DNA of 8,076 nt. Origin: a virus (taxonomy: Duplodnaviria > Heunggongvirae > Uroviricota > Caudoviricetes). This document shows positions 1,331 through 8,076 of the stretch, in pieces. The stretch lies in IMG/VR virus record IMGVR_UViG_2531839474_000011; one strand, given 5' to 3'. Position numbers and translations under genes: made by a program. Under the pieces are notes generated by a model. The model searched no databases and was not told where the DNA came from. It saw only the letters and a list, made by a program, of their open reading frames with translations. Within the stretch, counting starts at the first letter, position 1, and every line of letters starts with the position of its first letter.

Positions 1331-1345
1331 GCTTTTTTATACTAA
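1331..1345. other. attL: lambda att common core (GCTTTTTTATACTAA); junction is attL (B-O-P')
   Basis: Exact 15-bp lambda core. Left flank GAAGCCTG matches the bacterial attB arm; right flank GTTGGCATTATAAAAAAGCATTGCTTATCAATTTG matches the phage P' arm. int lies about 80 bp to the right, as in lambda. Confidence 0.9.
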
Positions 1346-1425
1346 GTTGGCATTATAAAAAAGCATTGCTTATCAATTTGTTGCAACGAACAGGTCACTA
1401 TCAGTCAAAATAAAATCATTATTTG
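1346..1425. promoter_or_regulatory. P' arm of attL: IHF H' site and tandem Int arm-type sites P'1-P'3
   Basis: IHF-like motif TATCAATTTGTTG at about 1371-1383. Repeated arm-type-like elements GTCACTATCAGTCAAAATAAAATCATTATT at about 1392-1425. Overlaps the 3' end of int as in lambda attP. Confidence 0.7.
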
Positions 1426-2489
1426 ATTTCAATTTTGTCCCACTCCCTGCCTCTGTCATCACGATACTGTGATGCCATGGTGTCCGACTTATGCCCGAGA
1501 AGATGTTGAGCAAACTTATCGCTTATCTGCTTCTCATAGAGTCTTGCAGACAAACTGCGCAACTCGTGAAAGGTAGGCGGATCCCCTTCGAAGGAAAGAC
1601 CTGATGCTTTTCGTGCGCGCATAAAATACCTTGATACTGTGCCGGATGAAAGCGGTTCACGACGAGTAGATGCAATTATGGTTTCTCCGCCAAGAATCTC
1701 TTTGCATTTATCAAGTGTTTCCTTCATTGATATCCCGAGAGCATCAACATGCAATGTTGTTGGGATGGCAATTTTTACGCCTGTTTTGCTTTGCTCGACA
1801 TAAAGATATCCATCTACGATATCAGACCACTTCATTTCGCATAAATCACCAACTCGCTGCCCGGTAACAACAGCCAGTTCCATTGCAAGTCTGAGCCAAC
1901 ATGGTGATGATTCTGCTGCTTGATAAATTTTCAGGTATTCGTCAGCCGTAAGTCTTGATCTCCTTACCTCTGATTTTGCTGCGCGAGTGGCAGCGACAGG
2001 GTTTGTTGTTATATGGCCTTCAGCTATTGCCTCTCGGAATGCATCGCTCAGTGTTGATCTGATTAACTTGGCTGATGCCGCCTTGCCCTCGTCTATGTAT
2101 CCATTGAGCATTGCCGCAATTTCTTTTGTGGTGATGTCTTCAAGTGGAGCATCAGGCAGACCCCTCCTTATTGCTTTAATTTTGCTCATGTAATTTATGA
2201 GTGTCTTCTGCTTGATTCCTCTGCTGGCGAGTATTTTTTCGTAGCGATCAAGCCATGAATGTAACGTAACAGAATTATCACTGTTGATTCTCGCTGTCAG
2301 AGGCTTGTGTTTGTGTCCTGAAAATAACTCAATGTTTGCCTGTATTGCTTCAGTAATTGCTATCCTCCTGTCTCTGCCTAATCCGAACTCTTTACCCGTC
2401 CTTGGGTCCCTGTAGCAGTAATATCCATTGTTTCTTATATAAAGGTTAGGGGGTAAATCCCGGCGCTCATGACTTCGCCTTCTTCCCAT
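1419..2489 (-). CDS. int: lambda integrase (tyrosine site-specific recombinase)
   Basis: 356-aa ORF beginning MGRRRSHERRDLPPNLYIRNNGYYCYRDPRTGKEFGLG and ending ...HLLGHKSDTMASQYRDDRGREWDKIEIK. Matches lambda Int in length and sequence from memory; contains the tyrosine-recombinase catalytic region (HELRS...HLLGH...Y). Position is adjacent to attL. Confidence 0.97.
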   Translation of the reverse strand: MGRRRSHERRDLPPNLYIRNNGYYCYRDPRTGKEFGLGRDRRIAITEAIQANIELFSGHKHKPLTARINSDNSVTLHSWLDRYEKILASRGIKQKTLINYMSKIKAIRRGLPDAPLEDITTKEIAAMLNGYIDEGKAASAKLIRSTLSDAFREAIAEGHITTNPVAATRAAKSEVRRSRLTADEYLKIYQAAESSPCWLRLAMELAVVTGQRVGDLCEMKWSDIVDGYLYVEQSKTGVKIAIPTTLHVDALGISMKETLDKCKEILGGETIIASTRREPLSSGTVSRYFMRARKASGLSFEGDPPTFHELRSLSARLYEKQISDKFAQHLLGHKSDTMASQYRDDRGREWDKIEIK

Positions 2490-2685
2490 TTCTGATTCTC
2501 TTCAAAAGGCTACCTGTTACTGGTCGATTTAAGTCAACCTTTACCGCTGATTCGTGGAACAGATACTCTCTTCCATCCTTAACTGGAGGAGGGAATATCC
2601 TGCATTCGCGCACCCATCGACGAACTGTTTCAAGGCTTCTTGGGCGCCGCTGGCGTGCGTTCCACTCCTGAAGTGTTAAGTACAT
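2467..2685 (-). CDS. xis: lambda excisionase Xis (72 aa)
   Basis: MYLTLQEWNARQRRPRSLETVRRWVRECRIFPPPVKDGREYLFHESAVKVDLNRPVTGSLLKRIRNGKKAKS. ATG at 2685-2683. Overlaps int by 23 nt as in lambda. The 30-codon upstream extension in the ORF track is not used. Confidence 0.93.
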   Translation of the reverse strand: MYLTLQEWNARQRRPRSLETVRRWVRECRIFPPPVKDGREYLFHESAVKVDLNRPVTGSLLKRIRNGKKAKS

Positions 2686-2697
2686 CGCAAAGTCTCC

Positions 2698-2711
2698 GCA
2701 ATTACACGCAA
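2698..2711 (-). promoter_or_regulatory. cII-binding box TTGC-N6-TTGC of the pI (int) promoter, inside the xis 5' region
   Basis: Minus strand reads TTGCGTGTAATTGC (direct TTGC repeat, 6-nt spacer) 13 nt upstream of the xis ATG. This places the pI transcript start inside xis, so pI transcripts encode Int but not Xis (known lambda arrangement). Confidence 0.65.
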
Positions 2712-2733
2712 GAAAAAACCGCATTGATGCGGC
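2710..2733 (-). terminator. putative intrinsic terminator (5-6 bp GC stem + T-run) downstream of the IS2-interrupted gene
   Basis: Minus strand GCCGCATCAATGCGG followed by TTTTTTCTT. A second perfect 7-bp hairpin GCCTCAC-ACTCG-GTGAGGC lies at 2769-2787 without a T-run. The T-run runs into the cII box of pI. Confidence 0.4.
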
Positions 2734-2802
2734 GATGGTAGGTCTGGATATCATTGAGCAATGAACAGGCCTCACCGAGTGTGAGGCGGTGTTATTTCAT
2801 GG

Positions 2803-2846
2803 TTAGTCCTTGCGTAGCTCGCTGATTCTTCTGTAAGTCTCTGGTG
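2803..2846 (-). pseudogene. 3' remnant (last 14 codons + stop) of the accessory gene split by IS2
   Basis: Joining 4183 to 2846 across the IS2 and its 5-bp duplication restores an uninterrupted frame ending ...KIHGNK-APETYRRISELRKD with TAA at 2805-2803. Confidence 0.6.
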
Positions 2847-2851
2847 CTTTG
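2847..2851. repeat. IS2 target-site duplication, left copy (CTTTG)
   Basis: CTTTG immediately outside the IS2 left end; identical 5-mer at 4183-4187 immediately outside the right end. 5 bp is the duplication size known for IS2. Confidence 0.85.
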
Positions 2852-2892
2852 TAGACTGGCCCCCTGAATCTCCAGACAACCAGTATCACTTA
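2852..2892. repeat. IS2 left terminal inverted repeat (IRL)
   Basis: Imperfect inverted complement of 4142-4182. Confidence 0.75.
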
Positions 2893-2942
2893 AATAAGTG
2901 ATAGTCTTAATACTAGTTTTTAGACTAGTCATTGGAGAACAG

Positions 2943-3308
2943 ATGATTGATGTCTTAGGGCCGGAGAAACGCAGACGGCGTACCACACAGGAAAAGATCG
3001 CAATTGTTCAGCAGAGCTTTGAACCGGGGATGACGGTCTCCCTCGTTGCCCGGCAACATGGTGTAGCAGCCAGCCAGTTATTTCTCTGGCGTAAGCAATA
3101 CCAGGAAGGAAGTCTTACTGCTGTCGCCGCCGGAGAACAGGTTGTTCCTGCCTCTGAACTTGCTGCCGCCATGAAGCAGATTAAAGAACTCCAGCGCCTG
3201 CTCGGCAAGAAAACGATGGAAAATGAACTCCTCAAAGAAGCCGTTGAATATGGACGGGCAAAAAAGTGGATAGCGCACGCGCCCTTATTGCCCGGGGATG
3301 GGGAGTAA
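2943..3308 (+). CDS. insC: IS2 InsC (OrfA; helix-turn-helix transposase subunit/regulator)
   Basis: 121 aa: [56 protein letters not shown]... Start ATG at 2943 is preferred over the upstream ATG at 2898 given in the ORF track. Confidence 0.9.
3260..3266 (+). other. programmed -1 ribosomal frameshift heptamer A-AAA-AAG (produces the InsCD fusion transposase)
   Basis: AAAAAAG in the insC zero frame (gcA AAA AAG tgg = A-K-K-W), at the start of the insC/insD overlap. Characteristic of IS2 and IS3-family elements. Confidence 0.75.
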
Positions 3309-4171
3309 GCTTAGTCAGCCGTTGTCTCCGGGTGTCGCGTGCGCAGTTGCACGTCATTCTCAGACGAACCGATGACTGGATGGATGGCCGCCGCAGTCGT
3401 CACACTGATGATACGGATGTGCTTCTCCGTATACACCATGTTATCGGAGAGCTGCCCACGTATGGTTATCGTCGGGTATGGGCGCTGCTTCGCAGACAGG
3501 CAGAACTTGATGGTATGCCTGCGATCAATGCCAAACGTGTTTACCGGATCATGCGCCAGAATGCGCTGTTGCTTGAGCGAAAACCTGCTGTACCGCCATC
3601 GAAACGGGCACATACAGGCAGAGTGGCCGTGAAAGAAAGCAATCAGCGATGGTGCTCTGACGGGTTCGAGTTCTGCTGTGATAACGGAGAGAGACTGCGT
3701 GTCACGTTCGCGCTGGACTGCTGTGATCGTGAGGCACTGCACTGGGCGGTCACTACCGGCGGCTTCAACAGTGAAACAGTACAGGACGTCATGCTGGGAG
3801 CGGTGGAACGCCGCTTCGGCAACGATCTTCCGTCGTCTCCAGTGGAGTGGCTGACGGATAATGGTTCATGCTACCGGGCTAATGAAACACGCCAGTTCGC
3901 CCGGATGTTGGGACTTGAACCGAAGAACACGGCGGTGCGGAGTCCGGAGAGTAACGGAATAGCAGAGAGCTTCGTGAAAACGATAAAGCGTGACTACATC
4001 AGTATCATGCCCAAACCAGACGGGTTAACGGCAGCAAAGAACCTTGCAGAGGCGTTCGAGCATTATAACGAATGGCATCCGCATAGTGCGCTGGGTTATC
4101 GCTCGCCACGGGAATATCTGCGGCAGCGGGCTTGTAATGGGTTAAGTGATAACAGATGTCTGGAAATATAG
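3266..4171 (+). CDS. insD: IS2 InsD (OrfB; DDE transposase catalytic domain, rve/integrase core)
   Basis: 301-aa ORF in the -1 frame relative to insC, starting [20 protein letters not shown]... and ending ...[31 protein letters not shown]. The in-frame start codon at 3266 is GTG. Confidence 0.9.
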
Positions 4172-4182
4172 GGGCAAATCCA
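4142..4182. repeat. IS2 right terminal inverted repeat (IRR)
   Basis: Imperfect inverted complement of IRL; ends ...TATAGGGGCAAATCCA at 4182. Confidence 0.75.
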
Positions 4183-4187
4183 CTTTG
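4183..4187. repeat. IS2 target-site duplication, right copy (CTTTG)
   Basis: Identical to 2847-2851. Confidence 0.85.
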
Positions 4188-4483
4188 TTTCCGTGTATCT
4201 TCATTTCAGACTTCAACAGAGCAACGAGGGAATCCCATTCGTTGAGGATTCCTTTGAATGCCGGAACGCGCTTTGCAACCTTGTTGAATGAATCTCTGAT
4301 TTCTGGAATCTGCTCAACAAGTGCAACGCATCGTCTGAAATCGGCTGCGTCATGGGGAGCGCCGAAGTGATGACCATAGATATTCTTTTTCAGTCCACAT
4401 GCGATTGAGGCAAGAGTTGCGCTACTGATGCCAACATCGCCAGTCGATTGCCATTTCAAAACCTTCATAGCCAAATCTGACAT
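4183..4483 (-). pseudogene. 5' portion of a phage accessory gene of unknown function, cut by IS2 14 codons before its stop
   Basis: Likely start ATG 4483-4481 (MSDLAMKVLKWQSTGDVGISSATLASIACGLKKNIYGHHFGAPHDAADFRRC...) with GGAGA Shine-Dalgarno 6 nt upstream. The ORF-track start at 4510 lacks a Shine-Dalgarno and sits in a terminator hairpin. The frame continues into the IS2 IRR, where 13 IS2-encoded residues ([13 protein letters not shown]) replace the native C-terminus. Confidence 0.6.
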
Positions 4484-4494
4484 TTCTTGTCTCC

Positions 4495-4517
4495 AATAAA
4501 AAACCGCCATCAGGCGG
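4495..4517 (-). terminator. putative intrinsic terminator between the zinc-ribbon ORF and the IS2-interrupted gene
   Basis: Minus strand CCGCC-TGAT-GGCGG followed by TTTTTTATT; the T-run directly abuts the GGAGA Shine-Dalgarno of the next gene. Confidence 0.45.
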
Positions 4518-4583
4518 CTTGGTGTTCTTTCAGTTCTTCAATTCGAATATTGGTTACATTGTTTTCATATATGAATAAATAAA

Positions 4584-4763
4584 TTAGCTTTTTTCGTTGC
4601 CTTCGCGTTCTTTATTAATTTTGACAAAATCGTTTTTACCACGCTCTCCAAATACGTCTTTAGAGTCGTTGTATCCGCAATCGCAGCACACATAATCATC
4701 AGACCATCCACGCATTGTTTTTTCTTTTGCAATATTTCCAGAACCGCATTTTGGACAAGACAT
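4584..4763 (-). CDS. small Cys4 zinc-ribbon protein (59 aa), function unknown
   Basis: MSCPKCGSGNIAKEKTMRGWSDDYVCCDCGYNDSKDVFGERGKNDFVKINKEREGNEKS with CxxC...CCxC. Strong GGAGG Shine-Dalgarno 7 nt upstream of ATG 4763; the longer 70-aa version starting at 4796 has none. AT-rich local composition. Confidence 0.55.
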   Translation of the reverse strand: MSCPKCGSGNIAKEKTMRGWSDDYVCCDCGYNDSKDVFGERGKNDFVKINKEREGNEKS

Positions 4764-4859
4764 ATCACTACCTCCAAAGCATGAGAGAGATGACAACGTA
4801 ACATTGATTGGAGATTAACAATAGATTGCTGATGTAAAAGATATGTATAAGCTTAGCTA

Positions 4860-5507
4860 TCAAAGAGGAGGTTCTGGTAGTTGCATCCAGTCGGTTACAT
4901 TGCGACTCTGTGTTTCGAAAAATTCATCACCATTGCGGACAATATCGAAAAACTCTCCGTCTCGATATTGCGCATAAAGAACGAATGCGCCATCACATAA
5001 AATAATTACGTGCTGACCATCATCTGGCATTAGCTCACTACAGCTTATCCAACCATCCGGAGTTACCGGAGAGTTGCCGGGTTCTTTAATGTGCAAACGA
5101 GGCTCACCATCTTTTGGTTCAGGCCACTGACGCTCCATGTTGATCTTCAATTTATTTTCCATAGCAGCGGTAATTTCAGCATCACTGATACCGGCACGGC
5201 GCTGTGCATCCCACAACAGGAACTGCATATCAGCCCACTCGCTGAGATCGTCAGGTTCGGCTGCGGCTTCCAGAGCCTCTTTTGAGAGGTGTTTCAGTGG
5301 ACCAATGGGGCCAACGCAGCCAAATGTGGAGTCAGACCATTTGGCATGCTCGTGGCGAACCCGCTCGCGTTCCAGTGAGGCGAGAGCGATTTTAAATGCT
5401 GTAAGCATGTGTGCTTGATCGTTATCGAGTCCGAATGGCATTTCATCTCGTGCTGACTCAATACTGGTAATCGTATTTTGTAGCCATTCCATGGTAAAAG
5501 TGCTCAT
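4860..5507 (-). CDS. 215-aa phage accessory protein; two-domain architecture resembling the DUF550/DUF551 class found near Ea22-like genes (unverified)
   Basis: ATG overlaps the upstream stop in an ATGA junction (5504-5507). Acidic N-terminal region; C-terminal region GWISCSELMPDDGQHVIILCDGAFVLYAQYRDGEFFDIVRNGDEFFETQSRNVTDWMQLPEPP. The domain assignment is from memory only. Confidence 0.65.
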   Translation of the reverse strand: MSTFTMEWLQNTITSIESARDEMPFGLDNDQAHMLTAFKIALASLERERVRHEHAKWSDSTFGCVGPIGPLKHLSKEALEAAAEPDDLSEWADMQFLLWDAQRRAGISDAEITAAMENKLKINMERQWPEPKDGEPRLHIKEPGNSPVTPDGWISCSELMPDDGQHVIILCDGAFVLYAQYRDGEFFDIVRNGDEFFETQSRNVTDWMQLPEPPL

Positions 5508-5875
5508 CGTAAAATATCCTCTATACTGGTAAGCCCTTCATTATTTAGCCAGATCATTGCGTCATCCGGCAACTTGCTGTCTGGTTTTGCGTTTTTGAGA
5601 GAGGAACTCAGTCGCTTAATCCACATTGTCAGCTCAGTAATGCGCCTGTGTTTGCCTTCCAGCTCAACGCGCAGCCTCCCTACCGTTAGTGCAATATCCT
5701 CGTTCTCCTTGTCGCGGCGTTTGATGTATTGCTGGTTTCTTTCCCGTTCATCCAGCAGTGCCAGCACAATCGATGGTGTTACCAGCTCATGGAAAAGGTC
5801 CGCGTCAAATCCCCAGTTGTCATGCATTGCCTGCTCTGCCGCTTCACGCAGTGCCTGAGAGTTAATTTCGCTCAC
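5504..5875 (-). CDS. Ea22-like protein, short variant (123 aa)
   Basis: N-terminus MSEINSQALREAAEQAMHDNWGFDADLFHELVTPSIVLALLDERERNQQYIKRRD resembles the lambda Ea22 N-terminus from memory. The rest is predicted coiled coil and the protein is shorter than lambda Ea22 (182 aa). GTG start with GAGAGG Shine-Dalgarno; GTGA overlap with the upstream stop. Confidence 0.7.
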   Translation of the reverse strand: MSEINSQALREAAEQAMHDNWGFDADLFHELVTPSIVLALLDERERNQQYIKRRDKENEDIALTVGRLRVELEGKHRRITELTMWIKRLSSSLKNAKPDSKLPDDAMIWLNNEGLTSIEDILR

Positions 5876-6093
5876 TTCGAACCTCTCTGTTTACTGATAA
5901 GCTCCAGAACTTCCTGGCAACTTGCACAAGTCCGACAACCCTGAACGGCCAGGCGTCTTCGCTCATCTATGGGATCGCCACACTCACAACAATGAGTGGC
6001 AGATATAGCCTGGTGGTCCAGGCGGCGCATTTTTATTGCTGTGTTGCGCTGTAATTCTTCAATTTCTGATGCTGAATCAATGATGTCTGCCAT
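5872..6093 (-). CDS. DksA/TraR-family C4 zinc-finger protein (73 aa), TraR-like RNA polymerase secondary-channel regulator
   Basis: MADIIDSASEIEELQRNTAIKMRRLDHQAISATHCCECGDPIDERRRLAVQGCRTCASCQEVLELISKQRGSK. CxxC-x14-CxxC spacing and 73-aa length, as in F-plasmid TraR and the lambda TraR homolog. Confidence 0.8.
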   Translation of the reverse strand: MADIIDSASEIEELQRNTAIKMRRLDHQAISATHCCECGDPIDERRRLAVQGCRTCASCQEVLELISKQRGSK

Positions 6094-6142
6094 CTTTCAT
6101 TAATCCCTGAATTGTTGGTTAATACGCTTGAGGGTGAATGCG

Positions 6143-6169
6143 AATAATAAAAAAGGAGCCTGTAGCTCC
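6143..6169 (-). terminator. putative intrinsic terminator (GGAGC-TACAG-GCTCC + TTTTTTATTATT)
   Basis: 5-bp GC-rich stem with a long T-run on the minus strand, in the 98-nt gap between the 93-aa ORF and the TraR-like gene. Confidence 0.35.
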
Positions 6170-6191
6170 ATGATGATTTTGTTTTTCATGC

Positions 6192-6473
6192 TCACCGTTC
6201 CTTAAAGACGCCGTTTAACATGCCGATCGCCAGGCTTAAATGAGTCGGTGTGAATCCCATCAGCGTTACCGTTTCGCGGTGCTTCTTCAGTACGCTACGG
6301 CAAATGTCATCGACGTTTTTATCCGGAAACTGCTGTCTGGCTTTTTTGATTTCAGAATTAGCCTGACGGGCAATGCTGCGAAGGGCGTTTTCCTGCTGAG
6401 GTGTCACTGAACAAGCCCCATGTCGGCAAGCATAAGCACACAGAATATGAAGCCCGCTGCCAGAAAAATGCAT
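6192..6473 (-). CDS. hypothetical protein (93 aa), start uncertain
   Basis: ORF MHFSGSGLHILCAYACRHGACSVTPQQENALRSIARQANSEIKKARQQFPDKNVDDICRSVLKKHRETVTLMGFTPTHLSLAIGMLNGVFKER. No clear Shine-Dalgarno at the ATG, which lies 10 nt after the orf63 stop, so coupling is possible. An alternative GTG start at V23 has a GGGG motif upstream. Confidence 0.45.
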   Translation of the reverse strand: MHFSGSGLHILCAYACRHGACSVTPQQENALRSIARQANSEIKKARQQFPDKNVDDICRSVLKKHRETVTLMGFTPTHLSLAIGMLNGVFKER

Positions 6474-6483
6474 TCAGTGGTTG

Positions 6484-6675
6484 TCATACCTGGTCTCTCT
6501 CATCTGCTTCTGCTTTCGCCACCATCATTTCCAGTTTTTGTGAAAGGGATGTGGCTAACGTATGAAATTCTTCGTCTGTTTCTACTGGTATTGGCACAAA
6601 CCTGATTCCAATTTGAGCAAGGCTATGTGCCATCTCGATACTCGTTCTTAACTCAACAGGAGATGCTTTGTGCAT
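6484..6675 (-). CDS. orf63: lambda Orf63-like protein (63 aa)
   Basis: [69 protein letters not shown] Shine-Dalgarno. Size, 28-nt overlap with the upstream gene and position relative to exo match lambda orf63. Confidence 0.7.
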   Translation of the reverse strand: MHKASPVELRTSIEMAHSLAQIGIRFVPIPVETDEEFHTLATSLSQKLEMMVAKAEADERDQV

Positions 6676-6830
6676 ACAGCCCCTCGTTTATTATTTATCT
6701 CCTCAGCCAGCCGCTGTGCTTTCAGTGGATTTCGGATAACAGAAAGGCCGGGAAATACCCAGCCTCGCTTTGTAACGGAGTAGACGAAAGTGATTGCGCC
6801 TACCCGGATATTATCGTGAGGATGCGTCAT
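6648..6830 (-). CDS. orf60a: lambda Orf60a-like protein (60 aa)
   Basis: [63 protein letters not shown] at 6830 forms an ATGA overlap with the exo stop, as in lambda. The ORF-track start two codons upstream (6836) is an alternative. Confidence 0.7.
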
Positions 6831-7507
6831 CGCCATTGCTCCCCAAATACAAAACCAATTTCAGCCAGTGCCTCGTCCATTTTTTCGATGAACTCCGGCA
6901 CCATCTCGTCAAAACTCGCCATGTACTTTTCATCCCGCTCAACCACGACATAATGCAGTCCTTCACGCTTCATACGCGGGTCATAGTTGGCAAAGTACCA
7001 GGCATCTTTTCGTGTCACCCACATGCTGTACTGCACCTGGGCCATGTAAGCCGACTTTATGGCCTCGAAACCACCGAGCCGGAACTTCATGAAATCCCGG
7101 GAGGTAAACGGGCATTTCAGCTCAAGGCCATTGCCGTCACTGCATAAACCATCGGGAGAGCAGGCGGTGCGCATACTTTCGTCGCGATAGATGATCGGGG
7201 ATTCAGTAACATTCACGCCGGAAGTGAATTCAAACAGGGTTCTGGCGTCGTTCTCGTACTGTTTTCCCCATGCCAGCGCCTTAGCATTAACTTCCGGAGC
7301 CACACCGGTGCAAACCTCAGCCAGCAGGGTGTGGAAGTAGGACATTTTCATGTCAGGCCACTTCTTTCCTGAGCGGGGCTTGGCTATCACGTTGTGAACT
7401 TCTGAAGCGGTGATGACGCCGAGCCGTAATTTGTGCCATGCATCATCCCCCTGTTCGACAGCTCTCACGTCGATCCCGGTACGCTGCAGGATAATGTCCG
7501 GTGTCAT
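6827..7507 (-). CDS. exo: lambda exonuclease (Red-alpha; 5'-3' dsDNA exonuclease)
   Basis: 226 aa, [69 protein letters not shown]...[11 protein letters not shown]. Recognised as lambda Exo. ATGA overlap with the bet stop. Confidence 0.95.
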
Positions 7508-8076
7508 GCTGCCACCTTCTGCTCAGTGGCTTTCTGTTTCAGGAATCCAAGAGCTTTCACTGCTTCGGCCTGTGTCAGTTCTGACGATGCGCGAATGTCG
7601 CGGCGAAATATCTGGGAACAGAGCGGCAATAAGTCGTCATCCCATGTTTTGTCCAGGGCAATCAGCAGAGTGTTAATCTCCTGCATGGTTTCATCGTTAA
7701 CCGGAGTAATGTCGCGTTCCGGCTGACGTTCTGCGGTGTATGCGGTATTTTCGACAATGCGCTCGGCTTCATCCTTGTCATAGATACCAGCAAATCCGAA
7801 GGCCAGACGGGCACACTGAATCATGGCTTTATGCCGTAACATCCGTTTGGGATGCGACTGCCACGGCCCCGTAATTTCTCTGCCTTCGCGGGTTTTGAAT
7901 GGTTCGCGACGGCATTCATCCATCCACTCGGTAACGCAGATCGGATGATTACGGTCCTTGCGGTAAATCCGGCATGTACAGGATTCATTGTCCTGCTCAA
8001 AGTCCATGCCATCAAACTGCTGGTTTTCATTGATGATGCGGGACCAGCCATCAACGCCCACCACCGGAACGATGCC
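7504..8076 (-). CDS. bet: lambda Bet (Red-beta single-strand annealing protein), C-terminal 190 codons; 5' end lies beyond the window
   Basis: In-frame to the window edge, ending ...[26 protein letters not shown] with TGA at 7506-7504. Matches the lambda Bet C-terminus from memory. The ATG at 8064 in the ORF track is internal. Confidence 0.95.

Follow-up and report, generated by a model that had tools for sequence, protein, structure and literature searches.

The start of a 215-aa open reading frame (ORF) overlapping the stop of an Ea22-like gene raises the question of whether this frame is a broken-off piece of a longer Ea22-type protein or a gene in its own right, and of what its product might do. 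The window, by which we mean the whole 8,076-nt stretch of DNA that was analyzed, is an arm of a lambda-like prophage, and the features discussed here are collected in Table 1. We found a protein identical to the 215-aa product in RefSeq (WP_000103027.1), named "dATP/dGTP pyrophosphohydrolase domain-containing protein," and the exact sequence on 558 contigs, a distribution that, together with the RefSeq coding sequence (CDS), lies far beyond chance. A preliminary description of this DNA had allowed for the frame having no domain matches and no conservation; the opposite was found, namely two Pfam domains and the 558 contigs. The 215-aa gene is thus a real, already catalogued and ordinary lambdoid-prophage gene. 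Its exact module combination occurred in 22 of 5426 complete Escherichia coli genomes, and parts of it in 2192 of them (~40%), while an exhaustive homologue search (E up to 1e-3) returned 4292 clusters at 50% identity. Among phage records, the nearest matches came from a part of the P22 sequence that bears no annotation, from Klebsiella phage genes labeled "EaA protein," and from Stx-phage ORFs that are hypothetical or unannotated.

Table 1. Features of the 215-aa gene and its upstream neighbor, in window coordinates.
Feature	Position	Strand	Basis
PF04447-PF04448 protein CDS, complete (215 aa + stop)	4860..5507	−	Pfam; RefSeq WP_000103027.1
DUF551 (PF04448), residues 152–214	4866..5054	−	Pfam; five-stranded SH3/Tudor-like beta barrel predicted
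Variable DUF551 core, ~codons 164–202	4902..5018	−	DNA unalignable to an otherwise 96% identical gene
PF04447 (formerly DUF550) MazZ-like all-alpha core, residues 51–145	5073..5357	−	E = 4.5e-42; hhalign
Predicted metal-binding motif E77-x2-E80 ... E90-x2-D93	5229..5279	−	Aligned to MazZ E35, E38, E50, D53
N-terminal head, residues 1–43, up to conserved junction ALASLERE	5379..5507	−	Homologue alignment; model
ATGA, start codon of the 215-aa ORF and stop codon of the Ea22-like gene	5504..5507	−	Read directly
Upstream Ea22-like gene, 123 aa, GTG start, lambda-like to window 5657, other C-terminal tail	5504..5875	−	
GAGG, Shine-Dalgarno-like, 10 nt 5′ of the ATG, within the 3′ end of the Ea22-like gene	5518..5521	−	Read directly

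The 215-aa ORF begins with ATG on the minus strand, the strand having been left unstated in the preliminary description. That description had reported that its start overlaps the Ea22-like stop as ATGA, and a direct reading of the letters confirmed this: the plus strand reads TCAT at 5504–5507, hence ATGA on the minus strand, in which the ATG of the 215-aa ORF (5507–5505) overlaps the TGA (5506–5504) of the 123-aa ORF. The identical 4-nt overlap was also present in another E. coli prophage (locus L007) and between sb32 and sb31 of Salmonella phage ST64B. Judging by its sequence and position, the GAGG upstream of the ATG presumably serves as a ribosome-binding site. The 123-aa ORF proved to be Ead/Ea22-like (PF13935, E = 2.4e-21; 77.2 bits against a cut-off of 27). 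The minus-strand gene order, which runs ybhC, int, xis, an IS2 insertion, a 122-aa ORF, the Eag Zn-ribbon gene, the 215-aa ORF, the Ea22-like gene, a TraR/DksA-type gene (orf73), three small exo-xis genes (hypothetical, DUF1382, and DUF1317), exo, and bet, agrees with that of the lambda exo-xis region, and the prophage is located at the lambda attachment site, adjoining ybhC.

A crude consensus search found no sigma-70-like promoter on the coding strand in 4100–6900, in keeping with a gene expressed as part of the leftward early operon. We also considered that the gene might be a "moron" with a promoter of its own, and set this candidate aside when no coding-strand promoter match was found, such a scan being weak evidence. 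Rfam returned nothing across the window. In NZ_CP148323, a near-identical reference, the prophage stops just past gam; its ren is truncated, and emrE and ybcK come next (L001 10158–12468). Only a remnant is present there, possibly without pL/N control, so that pL-driven expression in this host is uncertain. The window's own end lies in bet, short of the gam region.

The preliminary description had suggested that the two ORFs could be a split version of a longer Ea22-type protein, pointing to the 123-aa length of the upstream one, and had named a separate effector as the alternative. Lambda Ea22 is 86% identical to residues 1–81 of the upstream ORF and unrelated to the rest of it, and nothing in it meaningfully resembles the 215-aa ORF, for which BLASTP gave only a 17-residue match (E = 0.019) and in which Pfam found no PF13935 domain. 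Since DNA identity to lambda ends at window 5657, inside ea22, the 123-aa length reflects a mosaic exchange, in which another tail has taken the place of the C-terminal part, rather than a split. This tail also ends ST64B sb32 (49% over 55 aa) and members of several PHROG families, and the head of the 215-aa ORF also starts ST64B sb31 (56% over 52 aa). The folds differ as well, with DUF551 modeled as an all-beta barrel and the C-terminal domain of lambda Ea22 reported to form a mixed alpha-beta dimer (PMC10834534). A Salmonella homologue that is 77% identical has no Ea22-like neighbor and is preceded by a 10-nt intergenic gap, and in every listed genome with the tail-head gene junction, which was intact in 55 genomes, RefSeq holds two separate intact CDSs. 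The evidence therefore favors the separate effector: the 215-aa ORF is an independent accessory gene with its own head module and Shine-Dalgarno sequence, and no broken-off piece of Ea22.

The split reading, in which both ORFs would be halves of an ancestral long Ea22-type protein, working together as a unit or joined again through a frameshift at the ATGA, is largely refuted by these observations, and we regard it as very improbable. It draws on the ATGA overlap itself, on the conservation of the tail-plus-head junction in ST64B, and on some rare fusions: one close homologue, P0065, found on a single contig, joins Ea22, DUF550, and DUF551 in 370 aa, and among 150 family representatives the Ea22 domain (PF13935) occurs in 2, as against DUF551 in 41. 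DUF551 has also been reported in one Ea22 variant of Stx phages, V2 (PMC10834534), and in E. coli O111 an Ea22-like gene with a frameshift contains DUF551 junction DNA. However, P0065 retains the internal "MSTITKE" start and so looks like a read-through, and a phmmer search with the Ea22-like ORF against all collected homologues gave no match, indicating that the rare Ea22 fusions use divergent Ea22 parts. That the upstream tail is common to other Ea22-like proteins, that the downstream head is common to unrelated proteins, and that the head-bearing gene exists without an Ea22 neighbor likewise argue against two halves of one protein.

The independent 215-aa protein consists of three modules, a helical head (residues 1–43), a MazZ/DUF550-type core (~44–146), and a DUF551 barrel (147–215). 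The preliminary description had counted two domains and had recognized DUF551 among them; it was right about this domain, which Pfam placed at PF04448 (E = 1.5e-17; 64.6 bits against 22, covering profile positions 1–67 of 68), but its count was too low, as the ~43-residue helical head and the PF04447 core bring the total to three. The HMM search that it had proposed was positive for both DUF551 and the DUF550/pyrophosphohydrolase domain, and its statement that the function is unknown is outdated for the central domain, the PF04447 family having biochemically characterized members. Its acidic N-terminal region is real, with a net charge of −4 over residues 1–43, yet weakly specific in a protein whose overall pI is 4.5; the most acidic part of the protein is DUF551, at −10. 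The head also matched PHROGs 5117, 660, and 3323 and was modeled, at low confidence, as a helical hairpin. NCBIfam had no model for the 215-aa protein, and PADLOC-DB, which covers anti-phage defense, gave no family at E up to 0.01. The full-length AlphaFold model, built from 32 close homologues, reached a pLDDT of 59.6 overall and 34–58 in the enzyme core, with the helices correctly placed; the model was poor and was set aside for the core, and a Foldseek search with it was uninformative, returning no match in the PDB at E up to 0.001.

The PF04447 match scored 142.7 bits against a gathering cut-off of 23, its residues corresponding to profile positions 2–96 of 97, and the current Pfam name of the family is "dATP/dGTP pyrophosphohydrolase." Assays of two enzymes underlie this name: those of the DUF5664-DUF550 fusion from Acinetobacter phage SH-Ab 15497 and of S-2L MazZ (PMC12884076, PMC8342488). 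The latter (PDB 7ODY), the (d)GTP pyrophosphohydrolase of the Z cluster, itself passes the PF04447 cut-off (44.4 bits) and is thus in the same Pfam family as the 215-aa protein. Single-sequence and profile searches of PDB sequences gave weak MazZ matches (E = 0.53 and 0.026), a point settled with the S-2L mazZ gene sequence and hhalign, which aligned the core profile to MazZ with 91.7% probability (E = 7.6e-7, 31% identity over 89 columns).

The roles of the MazZ metal ligands and pocket residues, along with the activity and crystal structure of the enzyme, have been described (PMC8342488). Besides the ExxE...ExxD ligands, the hhalign alignment matched the pocket residues W57, D100, K119, N123, R126, W128, R137, and H139 to MazZ W15, D60, K76, N80, R83, W85, R94, and H95, of which D60 contacts guanine N2 and K76, N80, R83, W85, R94, and H95 come from the second chain (PMC8342488); a C-terminal beta-hairpin segment (PKDGEPRLHIK vs. 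ADNGAMRHI) is also shared. There were two mismatches in the pocket, MazZ K31 being replaced by H73 (with K72 adjoining) and I56 by F96, and specificity could therefore differ. Among 32 close homologues, each aligned ligand and pocket residue was either invariant or conserved to 90% or more, and the same columns reached at least 90% conservation in 150 family representatives; E77, E80, E90, and D93 were invariant both in the 32 homologues and in a further alignment, with the equivalent columns at 90% or more in the 150 representatives. With the four metal ligands and most of the pocket kept, the 215-aa protein is likely to be an active metal-dependent purine (d)NTP pyrophosphohydrolase. Its substrate would be that of the enzymes of 2-aminoadenine (Z-genome) phages, an extrapolation from ~31% sequence identity.

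There are also clear differences from these enzymes. S-2L MazZ comprises one domain of 105 aa, and its gene is flanked by datZ and purZ, whereas the 215-aa protein, ~31% identical to it, adds the head and DUF551 and is encoded in a lambdoid exo-xis region without PurZ or DatZ. The SH-Ab 15497 protein, an assayed dATP/dGTP pyrophosphohydrolase whose DUF550 domain is assigned by name in the two papers (PMC12884076, PMC8342488) to the family of the 215-aa protein's core, comes from a Z-genome phage and has as partner a second nucleotide-hydrolase domain (DUF5664) instead of DUF551. The DUF550 proteins of Z-phages form a monophyletic group of their own (PMC12884076).

In the DUF551 domain, W153 and W207-L210-P211-P213-P214 were invariant in the 32 close homologues, in line with the conserved family frame W...W(M)xLPxPP. 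A domain-only model reached a pLDDT of 90.9 with five strands, and the DUF551 core is predicted from it to be an acidic SH3/Tudor-like barrel; a fold search of BFVD matched solely DUF551 proteins or uncharacterized and unnamed phage proteins. The variable core of this domain is bounded by the conserved junctions PVTPDGWISCSE.MP and (T/D)HWMxLPEPP, and identical flanks enclose at least a dozen unrelated DUF551 cores. DUF551 is a portable cassette.

This modularity, a nearly invariant enzyme core with a swapped head and a swapped DUF551 core, is the less ordinary point of the 215-aa gene. The enzyme core was near-invariant across the alignments of 32 close homologues and 150 representatives, and the head and the DUF551 interior were swapped wholesale between the junctions ALASLERE, PVTPDGWISCSE.MP, and HWMPLPEPP. 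Otherwise near-identical close homologues bear other head types, one of which also begins unrelated proteins of YYZ-2008 and VT2-Sakai, and in a comparison with an otherwise 96% identical gene, DNA identity ended at window 5020 and returned at 4899. On the larger scale, window 5657–8076 (bet, exo, and into ea22) is 97% identical to lambda, with a sharp boundary at about codon 73 of the Ea22-like gene, and window 1331–2722 (int and xis) is 98% identical; between these lambda-like stretches, the C-terminal part of lambda Ea22, ea8.5, and a 55-aa ORF have all been replaced. Conserved boundary sequences have been described earlier in lambdoid early-left operons, and the exchange of heads and DUF551 cores is accordingly typical mosaicism and not a new phenomenon.

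At window 5379–5656, the upstream gene's final ~55 residues, the ATGA overlap, and the ~52 residues with which the downstream gene begins form a "junction block" that is kept in ST64B (L015 887–2334; sb32/sb31, 49% and 56%), where the gene bodies are unrelated. Its conservation suggested that tail and head might form an obligate interacting pair; we down-weighted this candidate because a Salmonella prophage (L003) has the head without such an upstream tail, which recombination junctions fit better.

Taken together, we consider it likely that the 215-aa ORF is an independent exo-xis accessory gene whose product combines a MazZ/DUF550-type purine pyrophosphohydrolase with a head and DUF551, is translated in a coupled manner, and has a role in the nucleotide pool. 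The gene would lie on one leftward early transcript with orf73 and the Ea22-like gene (the "ea" part of exo-xis), its translation would be coupled to that of the Ea22-like gene through the ATGA overlap, and its own GAGG would assist. By homology, the core would form dimers or tetramers whose active sites lie where the chains meet, E77, E80, E90, and D93 would bind divalent metal ions, and the enzyme would split a purine (deoxy)nucleoside triphosphate, with dGTP the likeliest substrate and dATP a possible one, into the monophosphate and pyrophosphate. The acidic DUF551 barrel would be non-catalytic and would most likely tether the enzyme to a protein partner, its interior being swapped between prophages as a cassette. 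No adenylosuccinate-synthetase-like (PurZ) or HD-phosphohydrolase (DatZ) ORF was found in the window or within 6 kb on either side in the reference genome, and the enzyme is therefore not feeding 2-aminoadenine synthesis. In a temperate phage with normal DNA, it probably serves to adjust or clean the purine nucleotides of the host at an early stage, which is the least supported step of the scheme.

Other roles for the same enzyme can be weighed against this pool-adjusting one. The MazG-like core might instead cleave (p)ppGpp or another guanine signal as a counter-defense, with DUF551 targeting a defense component. A phage MazG-like protein, Atd1, causes ppGpp depletion and confers protection from TIR effectors (bioRxiv 10.1101/2022.06.09.495361), the guanine-contacting Asp (D100) is kept, and variable DUF551 cassettes resemble an arms-race feature; the gene also lies in an early accessory region, beside a Zn-ribbon protein with weak Lar-like similarity, and Lar-DUF550 fusions exist in 2 of the 150 representatives. 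Atd1, however, is described merely as MazG-like, whereas the characterized relatives named DUF550 or MazZ, among them S-2L MazZ with its confirmed PF04447 membership, act on dGTP, GTP, or dATP (PMC8342488, PMC12884076), and the PADLOC families gave no match. By analogy with Atd1, such a hydrolase would weaken stringent or abortive-infection responses at an early stage of infection; we consider both the activity and this effect improbable. A cleaning function directed at damaged or non-canonical purine dNTPs, such as oxidized dGTP, would protect the replicating phage genome when the prophage is induced by SOS or oxidative stress. MazG-family enzymes commonly sanitize nucleotide pools, and the very strong conservation of the enzyme core accords with such a task. 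The DUF551 protein YfdS of prophage CPS-53, which adjoins YfdR, has in addition been linked to peroxide tolerance (PMC4776307; PMC10834534). But the YfdS phenotype concerns DUF551 and not DUF550, and the conserved MazZ-like pocket favors recognition of canonical guanine, so this analogy leaves house-cleaning, too, an improbable reading. Finally, the DUF550 core might be a dead scaffold, kept merely as an oligomerization platform that displays DUF551, as the swapping of heads and DUF551 cores suggests that display of a binding module matters and as the poor full-length model might be taken to indicate. The family-wide (near-)invariance of the four metal ligands and most of the pocket would be unexpected in a pseudoenzyme, and we give a dead scaffold hardly any credence.

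A bolder extension of the preferred purine pyrophosphohydrolase would make DUF551 a fast-swapped, mostly acidic targeting cassette that docks the enzyme on host or rival-phage proteins, with the tail-ATGA-head junction perhaps linking it to an Ea22-like tetramer. The pair would then be a modular effector working early, either to tilt the lysis-lysogeny decision or to oppose immunity based on nucleotides, through a local drain of dGTP/dATP or of guanosine alarmones. We put this forward as conceivable, though unlikely.

Relatives with known names place the gene further. In Salmonella phage P22, tblastn found 63% identity over residues 46–215 in an unannotated record, a match that we take to be eaA, and the literature search retrieved no functional study of P22 eaA. 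In Klebsiella phages, the tblastn matches to "EaA protein" genes (~54% identity) were restricted to the DUF550 core; both the P22 and the Klebsiella EaA proteins differ from the 215-aa protein in having other head and DUF551 cassettes. A homologue in a P22-like Salmonella prophage lies in the early accessory region near int. YfdS of E. coli CPS-53 and stand-alone phage DUF551 proteins have PF04448 in common with the 215-aa protein; YfdS, in contrast, lacks the DUF550 core. The phenotypes reported for YfdS are solely sensitivity to peroxide and a share in the multicopy suppression of replication over-initiation, and the adjacent YfdR is an HD-domain protein and a structural homologue of the nucleotidase YfbR (PMC4776307); a YfbR-like Pfam profile has been used for DatZ (PMC12884076). 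With YfdR beside YfdS and DUF550 joined to DUF551, DUF551 thus adjoins nucleotide-hydrolase-type proteins of two folds. Lambda Ea22 and its Stx-phage variants, including V2 with its reported DUF551 (PMC10834534), belong to the neighboring gene of the same exo-xis operon; the 215-aa protein differs in having neither a PF13935 match nor similarity to lambda Ea22, whose C-terminal domain is alpha-beta.

The main value of these findings is a correction, in that a named, widespread prophage gene takes the place of an Ea22 fragment. Beyond this, temperate phages with ordinary DNA carry an enzyme whose characterized relatives serve 2-aminoadenine genomes. If purine pools were reshaped early after infection or induction, this would bear on the bias of the exo-xis region of lambda and Shiga-toxin phages towards lysogeny, and on the use made of DUF551, which is among the commonest unexplained phage domains.

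Several minor observations concern the surroundings of the gene. Directly downstream, the Eag Zn-ribbon protein (window 4584–4796, minus strand) resembled the restriction-alleviation protein Lar weakly, below the threshold (E = 1.8e-4), and Lar domains were fused to DUF550 cores in two of the 150 family representatives; a functional link is possible. Between Eag and the 122-aa ORF lies a terminator-like GC-rich hairpin followed by a T-run (window 4501–4520, minus strand), within a 64-bp segment (4494–4557) that is 98% identical to lambda 29102–29165, just left of xis. The IS2-type insertion occupies window 2853–4182, between xis and the 122-aa ORF, and encodes InsC/InsD-like ORFs on the plus strand (2898–3308 and 3266–4171). 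It is missing from NZ_CP148323, an otherwise 99.6% identical E. coli genome, has ~5–6 bp duplicated at its ends, and replaces the 3′ end of a hypothetical gene, which encodes 114 aa in the reference and 122 aa here. In the E. coli prophages L007–L010, which have the same order of orf73, Ea22-like, and DUF550-DUF551 genes, a 354-aa DndB-domain gene (2197–3261) lies between the DUF1317 gene and orf73, and ea8.5 comes after the DUF550 gene.
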